This document shows positions 2,551-35,431 of a stretch of 64,000 nt of DNA, piece after piece. The stretch is from a virus. Within the stretch, counting starts at the first letter, position 1; each line of letters starts with the position of its first letter. The notes under the pieces were generated by a model. It ran no database searches and was not told the DNA's origin. It saw nothing but the letters and a program-made list of their open reading frames with translations. Location of the stretch: UHGV virus genome UHGV-0390448; one strand, 5' to 3'. A program made the translations under genes and the position numbers.

Positions 2551-3393
2551 CTAAGGTGCAAAATTATAATCCAGCGCCCAGGCGTCGAGCGGAAGTTCAT
2601 CGAGATGAAGCACTCTTTCCGTCGTCCGGTCTGGCCTTCCAGCGAACTGGATGCCGTCTAATTGAATGATCGTATCGCTAATAGATAGTTCATCGACCAT
2701 CTCTTGCGTCGTGTACACCCCCTCAATAAAGGACACTTCCGCAGATAAGCAATTCAGGATCTCCGCCATTTCCGGCAATGTTGCGCTCAACTGGAAAGAA
2801 ACACCATCAAACACGATATGCAATGGCAATAGCGGCGCTATAACCGTATCAAAATCAGCAAGTAGCTTCTGTACAGCAACGTCTCTGTCATCGCTATCAT
2901 AAGCTCGATACAGCTTATTTTGGTTGACGACAACCAGCCCTCTGGATGTCAGGAAAAACTCACCATATTGTGCCTGAGCGGTCGGTATTTCATTTGCGGT
3001 CGCGAAGAATGAACCATAGGGATGTTTTTCTGTATCGACAGGCGCATACAAAGGTTCCCATGAGACGGGGATTGTGCCAAATTCACGCCAGAACGTTTGC
3101 TCTATCGGCCTTACTGTTCCTTTGAAGTGCACCTCATCCAGTCGTTGAGCTAATAGCATTGGCCTGCGTGTTTTGTCCGTTTCTGTGATAACAAAGAAAC
3201 GACCATATTCAGCAATGCGAGTGTCCATATCCTCGCTTGCCATTGTGAAAAACGATTTACGGTTGCTTATTCGCGTGAGAATAGGTTCAACCGATTCATT
3301 CCACACGTCCTGAATCGTATCAACAAAGGCGGCCCACAATTTAGAATCCTGTTTAAATTGCGTCAGACGCTCTTTTAGCCAGTTATTCTGCAT
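2551..3393 (-). CDS. Putative baseplate protein
   Basis: 280-aa ORF in a co-directional tail module between a gp25/W-like gene and the fiber; positional inference. Confidence 0.4.
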   Translation of the reverse strand: MQNNWLKERLTQFKQDSKLWAAFVDTIQDVWNESVEPILTRISNRKSFFTMASEDMDTRIAEYGRFFVITETDKTRRPMLLAQRLDEVHFKGTVRPIEQTFWREFGTIPVSWEPLYAPVDTEKHPYGSFFATANEIPTAQAQYGEFFLTSRGLVVVNQNKLYRAYDSDDRDVAVQKLLADFDTVIAPLLPLHIVFDGVSFQLSATLPEMAEILNCLSAEVSFIEGVYTTQEMVDELSISDTIIQLDGIQFAGRPDRTTERVLHLDELPLDAWALDYNFAP

Positions 3394-3402
3394 TGTGACC
3401 TC

Positions 3403-4833
3403 TTACGGATAAGTTATGCTGAACGTTGATGATTCCACGTCCAGATAAACAAAATCATTAAAGTACACAGCTTCTTTCATGTTCTGCGTAGCCACGTCAT
3501 AAGACAGGAACATATCCAGCGATTCGATTACTCGCCAGATATCTTTTACTTTGACCTGTGCATAACATTGCTGTGAGTCGTCATCACTCTGCAATAGCTG
3601 GCTAAATGACATGGAGTCTTTACCGAAGTTCTCCTCCAGTGCCGCTTTAATTGCAGTTAGCGCGTCATCCACCAGCACACTCTTTTTTACGATACCGGTA
3701 AATTTGATGTTGAACGGCTGTTCATTGGTGGCGACGTATTCGAACTTCTTATTCAGCTCATTAGGGATACTCTCAAGGGCTGATAATATCTCTGTTTTCA
3801 GAGCTTCCTGTGTTACGCCGGGCTTATGCCCACAAAAGAAAATTTTGTTGATATTACGCACATCAAAGCCCGTTATTTTCTCCTGTAGCGCCTCCCCCCA
3901 CACGTTAAGCCATGACGTGCCACTGACCACGTTCTGAATGAACTGGCGGTAATCACCGCCCCAAACAACCTGCTCATCGTAGGCCACATAATACTGCGCC
4001 CTGTTTCGGGTTTCCTCGGTAGTTTCCATGCCACCACCGCCAGAAATGATCGAATCGGTTTTTACTTCCAGTGATTCGACATACCCGGAGATGTTCCCTG
4101 CTGGTTCAAGTTTCTGGCCTTCAGCCAGCGTGTAATCACCGAGGCTGGCCATAATATCAATGCGTACCTGACTCCCTGCCGCTGGCATCATCCCCATTGA
4201 TCCATCACCGAAGCGCACGCCGATCTGTTCTGTCGGCTTATAAACCAACACATAATGTTTACTGTTATCCCTGGACATGCGGAATAGGGGGTTATGTGTC
4301 CATTTTTCCTCGACACCATTAGTTATCACGACAACTTCCAGGCTGGCGACTTCTGCTGTTAACTCACGGGAAAGTAACAACGTCAGGAATGGTGTTTCTT
4401 GCACCACGTCGAACGTTATGCTGACTGCTTCATGCTGTTTTACTTCTATGCCGGATACTGTTTCACCAGCAGGGATAACAACACTACTGCTTGTTGCAAT
4501 TGGTGTCTGGTCACTTGTCAGTAATTCAGCCCCTCCGGGTAGCGTAATATCCCTGTCGGTTTTGTTGGTGATGGAAACAGTGCCGTATGACGCATCGACC
4601 AAACGACCGACATAGCCACGGTCTTCCGCTGCCGCGAGAATACTTGCTCTGCGCGTCGCGGTGGAAATGAATCCTTCTGTAAGTGCACGGCTTGCAAATG
4701 TACGCGCAATATAAACAATCTGCGCGCCAAAAACGGACTGCATTTGAATAAACTGGCTGTTTACAAATCGCGCCCACCAGGGGTTTTCGTTCAGCTTGGC
4801 ATTAAACTTGTCCAGTAATTCGGTAATACTCAC
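3403..4833 (-). CDS. Putative baseplate protein (J-like by position)
   Basis: 476-aa ORF immediately downstream of the gp25/W-like gene with 4-nt overlap, the usual place for a baseplate J-type protein. Confidence 0.4.
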   Translation of the reverse strand: MSITELLDKFNAKLNENPWWARFVNSQFIQMQSVFGAQIVYIARTFASRALTEGFISTATRRASILAAAEDRGYVGRLVDASYGTVSITNKTDRDITLPGGAELLTSDQTPIATSSSVVIPAGETVSGIEVKQHEAVSITFDVVQETPFLTLLLSRELTAEVASLEVVVITNGVEEKWTHNPLFRMSRDNSKHYVLVYKPTEQIGVRFGDGSMGMMPAAGSQVRIDIMASLGDYTLAEGQKLEPAGNISGYVESLEVKTDSIISGGGGMETTEETRNRAQYYVAYDEQVVWGGDYRQFIQNVVSGTSWLNVWGEALQEKITGFDVRNINKIFFCGHKPGVTQEALKTEILSALESIPNELNKKFEYVATNEQPFNIKFTGIVKKSVLVDDALTAIKAALEENFGKDSMSFSQLLQSDDDSQQCYAQVKVKDIWRVIESLDMFLSYDVATQNMKEAVYFNDFVYLDVESSTFSITYP

Positions 4834-5204
4834 GCTGTATCTCCGCTATCTTTCTGCATAACAACATTCACGGTGCCTCCTTTTGCCTGGAAGCTAATTA
4901 GTAACTGGTCTTCAGAGACAGTCGCGCAGCGGATCGCCTGGAGTCCAAGCCCTGGTAAGTCCTGCTGTAGCTTCGTCATCATTCGCGCTTCAATCGCCAC
5001 TTCAACAATGTGTGACGTATCAGAACCGAAGGGTTCGTGTTTGAACTCCTCCATCGGATTCCCCCATGACGGCAATCCGTAAACGCTGCCATTTGGTGTC
5101 CGTAGCCATTCATCGAGTCGGGCTATCCAGGCGTTTGTGTCGCCTTCAGCGATCACCACCCCGCTCTCGTTTGTCTGAAGGCGGGCATCAATCTCATAAA
5201 GCAT
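4830..5204 (-). CDS. Baseplate wedge protein, gp25/W-like
   Basis: 124 aa, contains GSVYGLPSWGNPMEEF resembling the conserved gp25/GPW motif; lies directly after the tape measure gene. Confidence 0.5.
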   Translation of the reverse strand: MLYEIDARLQTNESGVVIAEGDTNAWIARLDEWLRTPNGSVYGLPSWGNPMEEFKHEPFGSDTSHIVEVAIEARMMTKLQQDLPGLGLQAIRCATVSEDQLLISFQAKGGTVNVVMQKDSGDTA

Positions 5205-30236: not shown

Positions 30237-31105
30237 TCGATCACTCCGTTTTGAGTGGTATCAAAGTTCCTGGCCGGGATGCAGTAATAAAGGGAACCAA
30301 CGTGTTGTGTTCCGTAGCTGAAGATTCGATGCACGTACCACCAGCGGCGGGCGAGGCCATTCGCCATTTCTTCGTTCCATTCCAGGATTGAACCAACAGG
30401 TACGTTGTTTGCAGCAATACGCAGGATTAGCACTTCATCAGCAAGACCATCCTGTTCTCCATCGGCATCAATGGCATGAAACGAATCCCTTCCGTCCGGG
30501 TTATCCAGGACGTATACGATTTCCGGTTCCAGATAGGTAAGCTCACGCTGGTTGTTGTCCAGTTGCGTGAAAGACTCTTCACCTGTTTCATCGTTTACGA
30601 CGCCATAGGTGCCATCAGCCGGGCGATATAAAAGCGCCTCGAATGCGTCAGGGCTTGATTCAATAATGAGCATCCAATCGGCGCGGATCTGGTCGTTGAA
30701 CGCTTTGTGTCCGTTATATCGGGTTTTAAGCTGCTGGTTTGGTTGTCTGTTAGCGAGCGATGCCGGTAGGGGGGCGATGTCAGGTTCAATCACTTCCGTA
30801 ACAGAGTCACCAGCATTATCAGGCCAATTATCATGGCGGCTATCTGCTTCGGTGGCAGCGTGTTCTTCCAGAATACTGAATGGCCCTGTACTGACCTTCC
30901 CATTTTCCGTTGTGCTTCCTTCATTCGCTTCAACCGTCGTTGTCTCTTCTCTCTGCGTGCTGTCATGTTCTGTTCCCTTTCTCATCAGGCTTGCATCATC
31001 AGCAAACCATTCATCAAAACGGCCCATAAGCGTCCTCAAAGGTCGATTTATCAGGTATCGAGGGGCATTGTCAGGAGATTGTGATTTCAATTCATATCCC
31101 AGCAT
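30233..31105 (-). CDS. Hypothetical structural protein
   Basis: 290-aa ORF, first gene of the minus-strand module ending at the rdgC-like/dmt pair. Confidence 0.4.
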   Translation of the reverse strand: MLGYELKSQSPDNAPRYLINRPLRTLMGRFDEWFADDASLMRKGTEHDSTQREETTTVEANEGSTTENGKVSTGPFSILEEHAATEADSRHDNWPDNAGDSVTEVIEPDIAPLPASLANRQPNQQLKTRYNGHKAFNDQIRADWMLIIESSPDAFEALLYRPADGTYGVVNDETGEESFTQLDNNQRELTYLEPEIVYVLDNPDGRDSFHAIDADGEQDGLADEVLILRIAANNVPVGSILEWNEEMANGLARRWWYVHRIFSYGTQHVGSLYYCIPARNFDTTQNGVIE

Positions 31106-31171
31106 GGGACTAAAGTGCTTTACATTGTCCCATATTGGGACTACTATACTTTCAGAGAGAAGGAATCTGTG

Positions 31172-31474
31172 ATGAAAATAATTTCGGTAAAAACACTAAG
31201 GGATTTCTGGGCGAAGAATCCCGATGCAGAACAGCCATTAAAGGCATGGGTTGATGAAGCAACAAAGGCTGACTGGAAAAATCCGGCTGAGATCAAAGAA
31301 CAGTACCGGACAGCCAGCATCCTTAAAAACAGGCGCGTGGTGTTCAATATTAAGGGAAATGATTACAGGTTAATTGTCGCAATTGCTTATCAGCGAGGAT
31401 GGATGTTCGTTAAGTTTATTGGAACACATAAGGAATACGATGCCATTGACGCGGATACAATAGAACTGGAGTAA
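31172..31474 (+). CDS. higB: HigB-family toxin (RelE/ParE superfamily)
   Basis: Start MKIISVKTLRDFW and overall pattern match HigB-type toxins; followed 4 nt later by an HTH antitoxin gene. Confidence 0.7.
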   Translation: MKIISVKTLRDFWAKNPDAEQPLKAWVDEATKADWKNPAEIKEQYRTASILKNRRVVFNIKGNDYRLIVAIAYQRGWMFVKFIGTHKEYDAIDADTIELE

Positions 31475-31477
31475 ATC

Positions 31478-31837
31478 ATGAACATTAAACCTATCCGTAC
31501 AGAACAAGATTATGAGGCCGCACTGCGTGCGGTCGAACCGATGTTCGATAACGAACCGGAAATGAACACCCCGGAAGGTGATTTCTTTGAGGTCATGTGT
31601 CTTCTCATTGAGGAGTACGAGAAAAAACATTACCCAATTGAGCCACCATCACCTATTGAAGCCATTAAATTCCGCATGGAACAGCAAGGGCTGACCGTGA
31701 AGGATCTGGAACCGGCAATTGGTAAGTCAAACCGTGTTTACGAAGTGCTAAATGGAACACGAAATTTAACGTTACCTATGATTCGTCGTTTACATTCCCA
31801 GTTTGGCATTCCTCTTGAAAGTTTGGTTGGTGTATGA
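31478..31837 (+). CDS. higA: HigA-family antitoxin (HTH)
   Basis: 119 aa with C-terminal HTH (SNRVYEVLNGTRNLTLPMIRRLHSQFGIPLESL) immediately downstream of the toxin. Confidence 0.65.
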   Translation: MNIKPIRTEQDYEAALRAVEPMFDNEPEMNTPEGDFFEVMCLLIEEYEKKHYPIEPPSPIEAIKFRMEQQGLTVKDLEPAIGKSNRVYEVLNGTRNLTLPMIRRLHSQFGIPLESLVGV

Positions 31838-31871
31838 GTTCGGCGGTCTGTATGACCGCCTTTGTTGTCAA

Positions 31872-33068
31872 TCAAGAACCTTTCTTCACGTACTCCATAA
31901 ACATTTTTTCAGCTTGCTCAGGTGACGTTCCTGTCATGACCAGCGCATCAATGAACGCTTGCTTCTTCAGTGCGAATTGATCGGCAAGGCGTTGCTGAAG
32001 CTCCTTGTTTTTCTGTTTCTCACGTTGCAAGGCTGCTTCTTTTGCTGCTGCCCGTTTTTTTTGTGCATCGGACAACTTTCTGGCCCTGGTCAGCTGGTCA
32101 CGTAGCTTGTCAATCTTGCCGTTGTCCTTTGCCAGTTTTGTGCTTAAAGCGGCCTGGCGTTTCTGATAGAGCTTCCATTCACGTTTAGCTGCCTCAACAT
32201 TCGTTTTGCTGCTACGGTTTCGATTGAACGCCTTCTCGTCTTCTTTTGTGAAGTGTTTTGTCGTGCGGCGGCGATCGTCACCAAAGGCAACTTGCGTTGC
32301 AGCTTTTTGCAGGGCGCGAGCAATACTCATCTGCCAACTGGCAGACTGTAGTCGTGTCATTGAGTGGATCACATGTTTACAGGCGACGCCTTGCAGCTTA
32401 GGGTTGCGAACTTTTGGATAGGCGTATTCTTTTGGCGGGGCCAGGGCAAAGTTACCCGCAGTGGCGATGTAGCGATACCAGTATTGATGGCGACCGCAGT
32501 CACAGTCGAAAGACACTCGCCCGGCACACAGTGATTTTGTGACTTTCAGGGCTGATTTATCATCTTCTGCGATGTCATCGACCATCTGATCCCATTCTTC
32601 AAAACGTACCCGGACAATGTGGTGCTGGTGAACGGATATATCGGACGCTTCCACTCGGATATTAATCACATTGTGACGAAGAGATACGGGCGTAGCTCTT
32701 TTGATACCAGAACCGTCGTCTACGGCGTTATTTGCTCGCTTAATATCGATAGCCTGGCTGGACGCTACCAGTTGTGCGTATGTGATGCCAGCCGTCTTGC
32801 TGTCATATTTTTCGCGTGCTTTGCTTCGCAGCTTTTCGAAGCCTTTCAGATCGTCACGCGTAAAGAACGTGCCGCCTTTCTTTTTCCCCAGCTTAAGAAT
32901 GTCTTCGGCTGATTTATTCCTAAGCCTGCCCGGCGTGAGTGTCCTGTGCGCCTGGCGGCGTTTGCGGTTTTGCTCTTTCCTGATGAGTTCAAATACGCGT
33001 GTGAAATCCTTAGAGGACAGACCGTTAGTGATATATCGCCCGTCCTGATTTTTCAGGAAGTCAGGCAT
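31872..33068 (-). CDS. SWIM-type zinc-finger protein with basic coiled-coil C-terminus, function unknown
   Basis: 398 aa; CxC...CxH arrangement (FDCDCGRHQYWY ... VACKHVIH) and a K/R/Q-rich C-terminal coiled coil. Confidence 0.45.
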   Translation of the reverse strand: MPDFLKNQDGRYITNGLSSKDFTRVFELIRKEQNRKRRQAHRTLTPGRLRNKSAEDILKLGKKKGGTFFTRDDLKGFEKLRSKAREKYDSKTAGITYAQLVASSQAIDIKRANNAVDDGSGIKRATPVSLRHNVINIRVEASDISVHQHHIVRVRFEEWDQMVDDIAEDDKSALKVTKSLCAGRVSFDCDCGRHQYWYRYIATAGNFALAPPKEYAYPKVRNPKLQGVACKHVIHSMTRLQSASWQMSIARALQKAATQVAFGDDRRRTTKHFTKEDEKAFNRNRSSKTNVEAAKREWKLYQKRQAALSTKLAKDNGKIDKLRDQLTRARKLSDAQKKRAAAKEAALQREKQKNKELQQRLADQFALKKQAFIDALVMTGTSPEQAEKMFMEYVKKGS

Positions 33069-33390
33069 TTTCTATCTCCGGTGCCGAGCCAGCGTAATCG
33101 CGAATCTTGTTTCTTAGCCATGCTGCGTCAGGAAGAGTTAACGTTGTCCCTACCGGCATTTCTTCCATTTCTGACTCATGGCCCACCAGCACGCGAAATA
33201 CCCAGCGCAAATCAGCATTGCCATAGGCGCGATAGGCCGCCAGGTCTGAGCGATAAACCTCATCAATTTTTATCGTGTACTGGAAATTATCGGAGTGATA
33301 CTCCGATACCCGCTTGATCATCTCCTGATGGAATAGTGCGCGCAGCACATCGTCTTCAATGCATCGATCGTCGAGCCTGCTGTAACTCAT
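33061..33390 (-). CDS. Hypothetical protein, first gene of the two-gene SWIM module
   Basis: 109-aa ORF overlapping the start of the SWIM protein gene; preceded by an 8-bp-arm palindrome (33393-33427). Confidence 0.45.
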   Translation of the reverse strand: MSYSRLDDRCIEDDVLRALFHQEMIKRVSEYHSDNFQYTIKIDEVYRSDLAAYRAYGNADLRWVFRVLVGHESEMEEMPVGTTLTLPDAAWLRNKIRDYAGSAPEIENA

Positions 33391-33482
33391 AACAGTTCCT
33401 CACAGTCATAACCTGTGGGGAACTGTATGCAGGGTGTGAAATGCGGGAAAGCAGCGTCACCTGGCCTGGTGACGCTGTAAAA

Positions 33483-33764
33483 TTATGCGTGGGAAAATAA
33501 TGGACGGATGTTTGGGCGAGCGGTTTGCGAAGCAACCCAAAGCTCATACTGGGATTGCATACCGGTCCACATTTCGGCACTGGTTCCAAGAGCGGACTCC
33601 AGACGAAGTGCCATATCAGCAGAAATACCTGTTTTTTCGTTCAGAATTCGGGAAAGTGCCGTGCGAGTAATGCCTAATGCAGCAGCTGCGTCTGTGACTG
33701 ACATGTCTCCCAAATATTCACGAAGAACCGCGCCTGGATGCGCGGGATTATGCATACGACTCAT
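33483..33764 (-). CDS. HigA/VapI-type HTH antitoxin-like protein (no cognate HigB adjacent)
   Basis: 93 aa with [13 protein letters not shown] and [38 protein letters not shown], the classical HigA signature. Confidence 0.65.
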
Positions 33765-34060
33765 ATGTGGAAAGCAACCCGTTTACCGGTTGGCAATTCA
33801 ACGTCCAGACTCAACTTTCCACCCATAGCCTCAACGTAACGTTTAAGCGTTGCTACTTTCAAGTCATTGCCTCGTTGTTCAAGTTTTGTGATGGCTGGTT
33901 GACTAATTCCCATCGCATCGGCAACTGTTTTTTGTGATAACTGAAGCTCCTCTCTCAACATCTGCAATCCGACTTCCAGAATCATTTCATCAGCCTGCTC
34001 TTTGATACGAGCTTGGCTTTCAGGGGATTGCGCAGCAATAACTTCTCTTAGAGTTCTCAT
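33761..34060 (-). CDS. XRE-family HTH antitoxin
   Basis: 99 aa with HTH ([21 protein letters not shown]), start overlapping the toxin stop. Confidence 0.6.
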
Positions 34061-34407
34061 TATTTTTTCTCAAGTTCTGCAAGATGGTTGGAAAATTCGT
34101 CGTCTGCAATCCGTATCATTCTTTCGTAGAACTTTTTATCGTTACTCTTATCTCCGGCGCACAGGATTATGGCTTGCCTTACCGGATCAAATGCGAAGAA
34201 TGCTCTGATAGGGCGACCAGCGTACTGAATCCGTAACTCCTTCATGTTTTTATGGCGTGAGCCTTTAACTGTGTCGGCATATGGCCTTGATAATGAAGGG
34301 CCATATGTTTCCAGATTGATCAGGTCAACCAGGATTTTTTCTTTTAATGCAGGTTCCTGTTCCTGGAACCATTCATCAAAAATTTTTCCAAAATAAATTT
34401 GCCACAT
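34060..34407 (-). CDS. RelE/ParE-superfamily toxin (Gp49/DUF891-like)
   Basis: 115 aa; toxin-first order with overlapping HTH antitoxin; sequence pattern of the phage Gp49-like killer family. Confidence 0.55.
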   Translation of the reverse strand: MWQIYFGKIFDEWFQEQEPALKEKILVDLINLETYGPSLSRPYADTVKGSRHKNMKELRIQYAGRPIRAFFAFDPVRQAIILCAGDKSNDKKFYERMIRIADDEFSNHLAELEKK

Positions 34408-34442
34408 AGTTATTCAAAATCCTTTTTAATAAACTACATGTT

Positions 34443-34479
34443 ATAAACTACAGGTTATATCATATAACCTGTAGTTTAT
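34443..34479. promoter_or_regulatory. Perfect 37-bp palindrome upstream of the toxin gene (probable autoregulatory operator)
   Basis: ataaactacaggttatat-c-atataacctgtagtttat, 36 nt upstream of the toxin start codon. Confidence 0.6.
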
Positions 34480-34512
34480 ATTTTCAAGGCCATTTTTTAT
34501 TCGATTTAGCAT

Positions 34513-35166
34513 TTAAAGTATCACGGTATCCTCATCAACTTCTTTCCCTGCCAGTGACTTTGGCTGGGAGGCTGCTGCTTTAACCTTCTCATGCCCAATA
34601 ATGGACAGGAACGAGGCCATTATCCCTGCTTTGTTTTCTTTCTCTACCGCTCCTGTCATTTGTTTCAGGTAATCCGCGCTGGCAACATTGTGGTATACCG
34701 TTGCATAGCAGCACAGAATCATCAGGATGTGCTCTGGTCGGATATCTTGCCAGTTAACTCGATAAACCTCTTCACCGTTGCCGTTGTATTCGGTATCGAC
34801 GATAGAGTCGGGGATCTCAAATGCCCCTTTGTTCTTGTCAGGCAGGGATAGCAGCCTTTGTAGTTTCAGCTCCCGGTATCTTTCCATGCCGACAATGATC
34901 GCCGCTCTGCCGTCGGCGTGCCGTGTTTTTAATGTTACCTGACTGGCACCTGTACCGGCTGAAATGGTTGGCGTGATTTCGTCAACCAGCACCTTAAATT
35001 CACTTTTACGCAGCTCGGCAATTGCTGGTGGAATTTTTCGTTTTTGTTCAATAGCAGATGCAGGGAGCGGCTTTACTTTGTCAATTACAAGCGCGCCGTC
35101 TTTCAGGACTGCCGTAGCCATCAGCGGCTTGTTAGTCGAAAGGCTGAATATTGCGATCTTTTGCAT
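34513..35166 (-). CDS. Hypothetical protein
   Basis: 217-aa ORF; no motif recognised. Confidence 0.45.
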   Translation of the reverse strand: MQKIAIFSLSTNKPLMATAVLKDGALVIDKVKPLPASAIEQKRKIPPAIAELRKSEFKVLVDEITPTISAGTGASQVTLKTRHADGRAAIIVGMERYRELKLQRLLSLPDKNKGAFEIPDSIVDTEYNGNGEEVYRVNWQDIRPEHILMILCCYATVYHNVASADYLKQMTGAVEKENKAGIMASFLSIIGHEKVKAAASQPKSLAGKEVDEDTVIL

Positions 35167-35190
35167 GGCTTTTACTCCACGATAGCAGGC

Positions 35191-35217
35191 ACAAAAAAAG
35201 GCCGCACATGGCGGCCT
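35191..35217 (-). terminator. Minus-strand Rho-independent terminator-like hairpin in the leader of the 34513-35166 gene
   Basis: Plus strand aaaaaaa-ggccgc-acatg-gcggcc; on the minus strand the stem-loop is followed by a U7 tract; lies only about 25 nt upstream of the start codon. Confidence 0.5.
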
Positions 35218-35431
35218 GCTTTGGCGTTATGACTCCCTACCGCGCATCGGCTGAAAGTTAGTCGTCAAAAGAACCTTCAACGGGAGCCGTTTGCGTAATG
35301 GATTTTGTCCAGATTGTGATTTCCAGAATAGTGTCAACAATTTTTTTGAATTTTTTATTCGCTCTGAATTTGGCCTAGGTCATTTTGGCGTAGATGTTTG
35401 CTTTTGTAACATAAAGCTTCAGTTTGTTTAC

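Follow-up and report, generated by a model that had tools for sequence, protein, structure and literature searches.

Four groups of described systems come closest to the locus reported here, a minus-strand operon at positions 33483-34479 of a 64,000-nt stretch (hereafter the window) of the virus genome UHGV-0390448. The first two genes of the operon resemble the type II toxin-antitoxin modules of the Gp49 type, such as HigBA2 of Acinetobacter baumannii, Rv2022c/Rv2021c and Rv3182/Rv3183 of Mycobacterium tuberculosis, and Tad-Ata. Gp49 toxins are toxic in Klebsiella and A. baumannii (PMC7192599, PMC5906591); in the latter species the Gp49-domain protein HigB2 has RNase activity, and promoter repression is exerted by HigA2 with the toxin as its co-repressor (PMC5906591). 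The pair in the window has the same PF05973 toxin of RelE fold, the same toxin-first order, an overlapping XRE-type helix-turn-helix (HTH) antitoxin similar to HigA2 and HigA3 of M. tuberculosis, and a palindromic predicted operator over the promoter. It departs from the known modules in its protein identity of only 78-83% to the nearest sampled relatives, in its operator, which comprises three units (a 39-bp perfect palindrome and a half-overlapping third) where Gp49/HTH relatives have two units 27 bp apart, and in the foreign antitoxin gene that follows it.

That third gene encodes a full-length HigA of the Rts1 type, the family of PF05015 toxins and TIGR02607 antitoxins exemplified by HigBA of Proteus vulgaris and GraTA of Pseudomonas putida, and it matches GraA. 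Compared with these modules, it stands without toxin gene, promoter, TGTGTATACACA palindrome and Shine-Dalgarno sequence, and is incomplete as a higBA module. Toxin-less antitoxins, together with the anti-addiction model, offer a further comparison (chromosomal CcdA of Erwinia against CcdB of F, the four orphan antitoxins of Bartonella plasmid pVbh, Klebsiella orphans; PMC7354431, PMC7192599), and here too one is carried on a mobile element. Plasmid-borne orphans have already been proposed as anti-addiction devices, a role that, according to a recent review, "remains to be demonstrated as a common usage" of orphans (PMC7354431). The orphan of the window differs from these cases in that its history can be read base by base, that it is wired into another toxin-antitoxin operon, and that its likely opponents are near-isogenic incompatible siblings instead of a chromosome facing a plasmid. 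As for the three-component systems (paaR2-paaA2-parE2, omega-epsilon-zeta and the toxin-antitoxin-chaperone system of M. tuberculosis), the likeness is limited to layout, namely an operon of three small genes that include one for a RelE/ParE-superfamily toxin and one for an additional HTH protein; in the window, however, no matching operator accompanies the third gene, which the inspected relatives of the pair do not share.

We propose, with a probability of about 0.7, that this locus is a chimeric three-gene operon formed by cassette replacement, in which the old HigA was kept, should still bind the HigB of sibling plasmids and does not regulate the operon.

Allelic states of the mat/gene 26 site

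The element is a phage D6-like, P1-related phage-plasmid. Its Mat protein shares 88.5% amino acid identity with Mat of phage D6, which agrees with the phage-plasmid assignment made in the first-pass annotation, and about 34% with Mat of P1. The flanks of the locus are common to ~90-kb E. coli plasmids of MOB-suite replicon cluster 1704, and a 25-kb stretch around it is 97.8% identical to a plasmid carrying higBA and 96.5-96.7% identical to plasmids in which the site is empty.

On these near-isogenic backbones, the site between mat and gene 26 was found in three allelic states: empty, higBA and that of the window. In the empty state, represented by phage D6 and plasmid pMUB-MIN14-1, a spacer of 219 bp separates mat from a short hairpin region, beyond which lies gene 26. 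In the higBA state, represented by pEC361_3, pAPEC201603 and CP099081, the 219-bp spacer is kept and precedes a promoter with the palindrome (C)TGTGTATACACA(G), a 93-amino-acid HigB of family PF05015, an 8-nt gap containing GAGGA, a 93-amino-acid HigA and a strong hairpin. The sibling HigB is close to that of P. vulgaris (E 4e-23).

Comparison of the window with pEC361_3 by blastn revealed two exact junctions (Table 1). On the left, window positions 32900-33765 correspond to 2601-3466 of the plasmid at 99.3% identity, and the homology ends 1 nt upstream of the higA ATG. On the right, it resumes at the mat stop codon, with positions 34513-35400 corresponding to 4091-4979 at 96.4%. Between the junctions, 747 bp of the window replace 624 bp of pEC361_3 that hold the spacer, the promoter/operator and higB; the spacer common to the empty-site and higBA-state plasmids is accordingly missing from the window. 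At the left junction, the Shine-Dalgarno motif GAGGA of the sibling was lost and the stop codon of the new antitoxin gene is supplied by ATGA. Because the 747-bp segment replaces the spacer, promoter/operator and higB of pEC361_3 between exact junctions, the arrangement of the window derives from the higBA state.

The retained higA gene

The product of the third gene was recognized by the NCBIfam model TIGR02607 (antidote_HigA) with an E-value of 2.2e-28 and 97.9 bits, for a cut-off of 47.7, and its PDB matches were GraA (2e-13), HigA of P. aeruginosa and HigA of P. vulgaris (8e-10). Its amino acid sequence matches that of the paired HigA of pEC361_3 at 100% identity, the two genes showing two synonymous nucleotide differences. 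A tblastn search of the 64-kb window with the PF05015 HigB of a sibling plasmid returned only noise (best E 2.1). These results confirm the earlier description of a HigA-type third gene without cognate HigB in the window. They do not fit the accompanying term "extra" antitoxin, as the junctions and the sibling comparison indicate that the orphan is the remainder left after higB and its promoter were overwritten, not an addition. The toxin of a competing plasmid, which the same annotation had put forward as a possible target, does exist: D6-like siblings carry an Rts1-type HigB at the same site, together with a HigA identical to that of the window. Since the HigA protein is unchanged, it should still bind this sibling HigB.

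Regarding its expression, higA has lost its toxin gene, promoter, operator and Shine-Dalgarno sequence (GAGGA in the sibling). A consensus scan of the minus strand over 33300-34600 detected one promoter-like site only, upstream of the toxin gene, and at the threshold used no internal promoter for higA; one terminator-like match was found inside higA, within chance expectation. The antitoxin gene and higA share a 4-nt overlap (ATGA). As its own promoter and Shine-Dalgarno sequence are gone and no internal promoter is predicted, we infer that higA would be expressed only by read-through combined with termination-reinitiation coupling at ATGA. Just 3' of the higA stop codon, a hairpin inherited from the old higBA module (fold -19.4 kcal/mol, z = -5.0) is the probable operon terminator, although its weak U-tract (CUUUCCC) makes the termination efficiency uncertain. 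This hairpin is present in the higBA-state siblings and absent from the empty-site plasmid pMUB-MIN14-1, which has a different one.

The first-pass annotation had also suggested that the orphan might neutralise the higB product encoded at 31172-31474. This candidate was rejected: that toxin belongs to PF09907, is similar to PD-Lambda-2_A, shows no similarity to the PF05015 HigB and has its own adjacent partner.

The incoming Gp49/HTH cassette

The 747-bp segment constitutes a complete, self-contained Gp49/HTH module. Its first gene product matched the Pfam family Gp49 (PF05973) over profile positions 1-89 of 90, with an E-value of 1.3e-21 and 76.9 bits (gathering cut-off 23.9). Because no sequence-level PDB match was obtained, either with the single sequence or with a 20-sequence profile, the fold was established with AlphaFold2 and Foldseek. 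The model has a mean predicted local distance difference test score (pLDDT) of 89.4 and a predicted template modelling score (pTM) of 0.82. Its top PDB matches were RelE, HigB of S. pneumoniae (TM 0.77), HigB2 of V. cholerae and HigB1 of M. tuberculosis, the matches to RelE, HigB and HigB2 structures reaching a probability of 1.00 and TM values up to 0.77. Since the model retrieves RelE/HigB structures as its best neighbours, the assignment of the toxin to the RelE/ParE superfamily (BECR fold) can be considered sound. By analogy with the characterised members of the family, it is probably an mRNA endonuclease.

The second gene product matched the Pfam families HTH_3 (2e-09) and HTH_37 (1.7e-06) and is similar over its full length to M. 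tuberculosis HigA3 (6lty) and HigA2 (7ewc), which are the partners of Gp49-domain toxins (PMC5906591). The toxin gene comes first and overlaps the downstream antitoxin gene by 1 nt (TAATG), and the antitoxin gene was paired with a toxin gene in every relative inspected. Open reading frames, Pfam matches and fold thus bear out the initial reading of these two genes as a RelE/ParE toxin with an overlapping XRE antitoxin, and the three open reading frames of the operon all lie on the minus strand at the coordinates first given. As in characterised Gp49-type modules, the 99-amino-acid antitoxin would neutralise the Gp49 toxin, and this pair would be the working addiction module of the locus.

The AAGGA ribosome-binding motif of the toxin gene is located about 13 nt before its ATG in the window (34408-34425, minus strand), compared with 1-3 nt before the start codon in two-gene relatives. 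The window has about 12 extra bases at this place (TTTTGAATAACT), which might lower toxin translation.

A search with the 747-bp segment returned 931 plasmid records at ~70-75% nucleotide identity, from Klebsiella, Escherichia, Salmonella, Yersinia and others. The matches listed among them were all annotated as a toxin and an HTH protein, and the two that were inspected proved to be plain two-gene pairs. The nearest protein relatives inspected, which share 78-81% identity and come from Shimwellia, Photorhabdus and Silvania, were two-gene pairs as well (3/3) and lie in unrelated chromosomal settings. No HigA gene followed the Gp49/HTH pair in the inspected relatives, that is, in the two plasmid records and in seven places for three toxin relatives. 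In Shimwellia blattae (L027-L029), the 81%-identical pair has cse1 on one side and cas3 on the other, within a type I-E CRISPR-Cas locus.

Promoter and operators

The predicted promoter of the operon (TTGAAA, a 17-nt spacer and TATGAT) has 10 of 12 matches to the consensus and carries a perfect palindrome. The first-pass annotation had placed this palindrome correctly but had given it a length of 37 bp. With arms of 19 bp on either side of a central base (19+1+19), it spans 39 bp at 34442-34480, one base past the end coordinate of the locus as then drawn, and the 37 bp at 34443-34479 are its core. The palindrome is made of two inverted copies of an 18-bp unit, TATAAAC-TACA-GGTTATA, of which a third, imperfect copy overlaps one end of it by 4 nt. 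When up to three mismatches were allowed, the unit gave five strand-specific matches in the window, all of them at the three operator positions, for 0.01 expected from shuffled sequences; chance does not explain this repeat. The central G of the palindrome (34461) is inside the -10 hexamer, and a protein bound to the palindrome would therefore occlude the promoter.

The window unit is homologous to TATAAGC-N4-GCTTATA, found upstream of two-gene Gp49/HTH modules in Citrobacter, E. coli, Shimwellia, Photorhabdus and Silvania. The upstream layout is also that of the window, with TTGAAA or TTGTAA as -35 hexamer, an 18-bp unit overlapping both the spacer and the -10 hexamer, and a second unit before the start codon. 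Because unit and layout are common to these two-gene relatives, the palindrome is best read as the operator of the incoming Gp49/HTH antitoxin, not as that of HigA. By analogy with A. baumannii HigBA2, this antitoxin, with the toxin as co-repressor, would repress the promoter through the palindrome over the -10 hexamer.

The possibility that the palindrome is a HigA operator was rejected, as the unit is common to the two-gene relatives and the paired higBA promoters carry a different palindrome. The latter (TGTGTATACACA), the presumed HigA operator, did not occur in the window beyond chance. The regulatory layer that the earlier annotation envisaged for the orphan is therefore not supported, since the operator is of the type of the incoming cassette and no HigA-type palindrome accompanies it.

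Variation at the palindrome was found among the three-gene loci. Locus L040 has two substitutions at mirror positions, equivalent to 34447 and 34475 of the window, which leave the palindrome perfect and turn each 18-bp unit into a perfect inverted repeat, while L038 and L022 carry one of the changes only. That the symmetric double change of L040 keeps the palindrome perfect argues that its symmetry matters.

Distribution and variation of the three-gene form

An assembly collection contains the exact toxin, antitoxin and HigA proteins in ~490-530 indexed blocks each, and the arrangement is stable. All 30 places displayed (30/30) showed the same three genes with the same spacing and the ATGA overlap at identical coordinates, mostly on contigs of 84-95 kb. 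Neither the 5,426 complete E. coli genomes nor the 72,556 PLSDB plasmid records searched contained the three-gene form. The locus had no exact 31-mer matches in IMG/VR and JGI metagenomes, and its comparison with a phage collection by megablast gave no match. The three-gene form is a minority allele.

The higA gene is intact in 31 of 31 three-gene loci, with no frameshift or stop codon, and occurs as six nucleotide alleles. It shows nine variable sites in this context, five synonymous and four nonsynonymous. Paired higA alleles differ from that of the window by synonymous and nonsynonymous changes in ratios of 22:3 (CP099081) and 27:5 (L034), and the comparison of these ratios with the variation in three-gene loci gave Fisher p values of 0.06-0.09. 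Recombination of higA with sibling alleles is likely.

Similar fusions elsewhere

To place the fusion in a wider context, we used a sample of 80 species-level relatives of the window HigA, with 59-82% identity. A PF05015 HigB was encoded directly upstream of HigA in 64 of them. About ten were plain orphans, located beside housekeeping genes or beside a decayed HigB (L096), and two displayed an independent fusion of the kind seen in the window. One of these, on an Alcaligenaceae contig (L098; JACCES010000028.1, 607-1871), consists of a Gp49 toxin (PF05973, 6e-26), an HTH_37 protein, a HigA (TIGR02607, 2e-29) and an orphan BrnA. The other, on a contig of a Gallionella metagenome-assembled genome (L094; PLBS01000085.1, 921-1782), has a HigB gene upstream of two TIGR02607 HigA genes that differ from each other, with stop codons that overlap the start codons. 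On a third contig, ~550 bp separate a Gp49/HTH pair from an intact higBA downstream of it.

Relatives of the Alcaligenaceae antitoxin (84-94% identity; 16 places for three relatives) are encoded in ordinary two-gene modules without HigA, and this fusion therefore appears to be a one-off too. On these comparisons, such fusions look like accidents that recur as cassettes turn over, not like a dedicated tripartite system. The Alcaligenaceae string itself contains one toxin gene followed by three genes of antitoxin families, two of them orphan, as if successive modules had each left its antidote.

Neighbouring features

A second cargo hotspot is located at ~31100-31870, next to tail gene 25 (31872-33068). 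Its content varies among the displayed loci, including otherwise identical three-gene plasmids (L007-L026): it may be a PF09907 HigB pair, a PF05015 HigB-like toxin with a 112-amino-acid HTH protein, a YjaZ-family "stationary phase growth adaptation protein" or an extra 245-amino-acid gene. The "higBA" occupying it in the window (31172-31837, plus strand) has a toxin that matches PADLOC PD-Lambda-2_A over its full length (3e-42), and its 119-amino-acid HTH partner matches PD-Lambda-2_B (7e-43) at positions 1-119 of 402 only. Instead of a plain addiction pair, it may represent a PD-lambda-2-type defence module that is truncated or split.

Directly upstream of the gene 26 start codon, a 14-bp inverted repeat (33392-33426; 93% complementary, 7-nt loop) falls within 60 bp that are conserved in the window and in the compared empty-site and higBA-state plasmids.

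Table 1. Positions of the operon, its control elements, its junctions and the flanking backbone genes in the window.
Feature	Position	Strand	Description	Basis
Gene 26	33061..33390	-	Baseplate wedge subunit, flanking backbone gene	Annotated baseplate protein in siblings; P1 gene 26 homologue in D6
Hairpin	33452..33477	-	Just 3' of higA stop, part of old higBA; probable operon terminator	RNA fold
higA	33483..33764	-	Relic gene, 93 amino acids, Rts1/GraA-type HigA antitoxin, now third cistron	TIGR02607
Antitoxin gene	33761..34060	-	XRE/HTH antitoxin, 99 amino acids, HTH at residues 32-83, N-terminal extension	HTH_3, HTH_37
Left junction	33765..33766		Recombination junction on the higA side	blastn against pEC361_3
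Toxin gene	34060..34407	-	115 amino acids, Gp49 (PF05973), RelE fold	Pfam, AlphaFold2, Foldseek
Third operator unit	34428..34445		Imperfect predicted unit, 4-nt overlap with unit 2	2 mismatches
Palindrome	34442..34480		39 bp, perfect; two inverted 18-bp predicted operator units (34463-34480, 34442-34459)	Arms 100% complementary
-10 hexamer	34459..34464	-	TATGAT, at palindrome centre	Consensus scan
-35 hexamer	34482..34487	-	TTGAAA, operon promoter	Consensus scan
Right junction	34512..34513		Recombination junction on the mat side, at mat stop codon	blastn against pEC361_3
mat	34513..35166	-	Maturation control protein, flanking backbone gene	D6/P1 Mat identity and annotation

Discussion

According to the cassette replacement that we propose, the mat/gene 26 site would first have held a canonical toxin-first higB-higA pair of the Proteus Rts1 type. 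A mobile toxin-first Gp49/HTH module would then have overwritten the 219-bp spacer, the higBA promoter/operator and higB. Besides the genes for a RelE-fold toxin and an XRE antitoxin, this module would have supplied its own sigma-70 promoter and three operator units of 18 bp. The replacement would have stopped at the start codon of higA, leaving the old gene to be expressed as a third cistron, with transcription probably ending at the old higBA hairpin. Two reasons might explain why higA survived: removal of higB may be viable only with continued HigA to act against residual HigB or against a sibling plasmid copy, and HigA may confer immunity to post-segregational killing by incompatible higBA siblings. 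Anti-addiction against the HigB of sibling plasmids is plausible, the window having an antitoxin without its toxin and competing siblings of replicon cluster 1704 (96.5-97.8% backbone identity) having the matching toxin. A further step would be to see in the operon an evolved competitive weapon among incompatible D6-like phage-plasmids, one that, by taking in a new addiction module and keeping the antidote to the old, kills the cells losing it and is immune to killing by the sibling it displaces; we regard this idea as tentative and would rather doubt it.

Several observations weigh against the proposed explanation. Its Shine-Dalgarno sequence is lost and it may be translated poorly. The search for higB covered the 64-kb window, and the ~28 kb of the plasmid outside that search could hold a relocated copy. 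Being absent from the complete E. coli genomes and PLSDB plasmids, the three-gene form has not outcompeted the higBA form. Both singleton changes in higA (T35A and N42K) are nonsynonymous, and the variation as a whole hints more at relaxed constraint than at strong selection, with the caveat that some variable sites are common to paired alleles and that recombination blurs the ratio of nonsynonymous to synonymous substitution rates. The overall divergence is small, and an intact higA could simply be young.

Some of these points also serve the view that HigA is a silent or decaying relic with no present function, kept only as a homologous flank between the cassette and the essential baseplate gene and eventually to be lost. 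The loss of its Shine-Dalgarno sequence, promoter and operator is what a relic would show, and so is a nonsynonymous fraction of 4/9 in three-gene loci, compared with 3/25 and 5/32 in paired alleles. Relics are moreover common and tolerated, as judged from the roughly ten plain orphans among the 80 HigA relatives, one of them beside a decayed HigB remnant (L096), and from Klebsiella, where orphan antitoxins occur in large numbers, often with only the non-toxin flank preserved (PMC7192599). Against a decaying gene stand 31 of 31 loci free of frameshifts and stop codons, a major allele that still encodes the exact paired protein, and an ATGA overlap that is identical in every sampled locus and offers a ready translation route. 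On balance, we find it unlikely that HigA is such a relic.

Far less probable is a dedicated tripartite system, in which HigA would act as the operon regulator, as in paaR2-paaA2-parE2 and omega-epsilon-zeta, or as a second antitoxin for Gp49. The three cistrons are tightly overlapped under one promoter, and the order Gp49, HTH, HigA recurs in the unrelated Alcaligenaceae contig; yet HigA is absent from the two-gene modules that make up the inspected relatives of both cassettes, close and distant, the operator is of the cassette's type and no HigA-type palindrome is present in the window, HigA is identical to the partner of the PF05015 HigB in siblings, and the junction bears the signature of a replacement. 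A conserved tripartite system was rejected on the ground that the inspected plasmid and chromosomal relatives of the window and Alcaligenaceae cassettes are without the third gene. We likewise give very little credence to HigA as a phage counter-defence factor that would disarm host abortive infection of the HigBA type, in the manner of T4 Dmd and the anti-DarTG1 orphan antitoxins. In its favour, this plasmid is also a phage, there are documented cases of phage orphan antitoxins neutralising defence toxins (bioRxiv 10.1101/2024.07.11.602962; PMC7354431), and HigB/HigA pairs of ~90% nucleotide identity occur on other large E. coli plasmids and a few chromosomes. Against this, higA belongs to a lysogeny-type, predicted autorepressed operon and not to an early lytic one, the matching host HigB is rare (42/20,395 records, nine chromosomal places), and we met no evidence that Rts1-type HigBA acts as phage defence.

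Both component families of this chimeric operon are well known, and their combination is an ordinary outcome of module turnover. Specific to this locus is that the overwriting of one pair's toxin half by another toxin-antitoxin pair can be followed base by base. Orphan antitoxins are common, yet whether they are relics, regulators or anti-addiction devices is a matter on which the arguments are still correlative. Here, three natural alleles occupy one site on near-isogenic, mutually incompatible phage-plasmids, and the orphan is identical to the paired protein; pairwise plasmid displacement and competition tests would therefore be simple and well controlled.

Toxin-first modules may form a one-way ratchet, in which relic antitoxins pile up 3' of each newcomer, because a replacement of promoter and toxin would be survivable only with continued expression of the old antitoxin. 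The Gp49-HTH-HigA-BrnA string of the Alcaligenaceae and the HigB-HigA-HigA string of Gallionella fit this pattern. The locus documents, at base resolution, the turnover of toxin-antitoxin cassettes at the cargo hotspots of phage-plasmids, and it carries a warning for annotation, as what is labelled a three-gene toxin-antitoxin system can be a two-gene system and a leftover.

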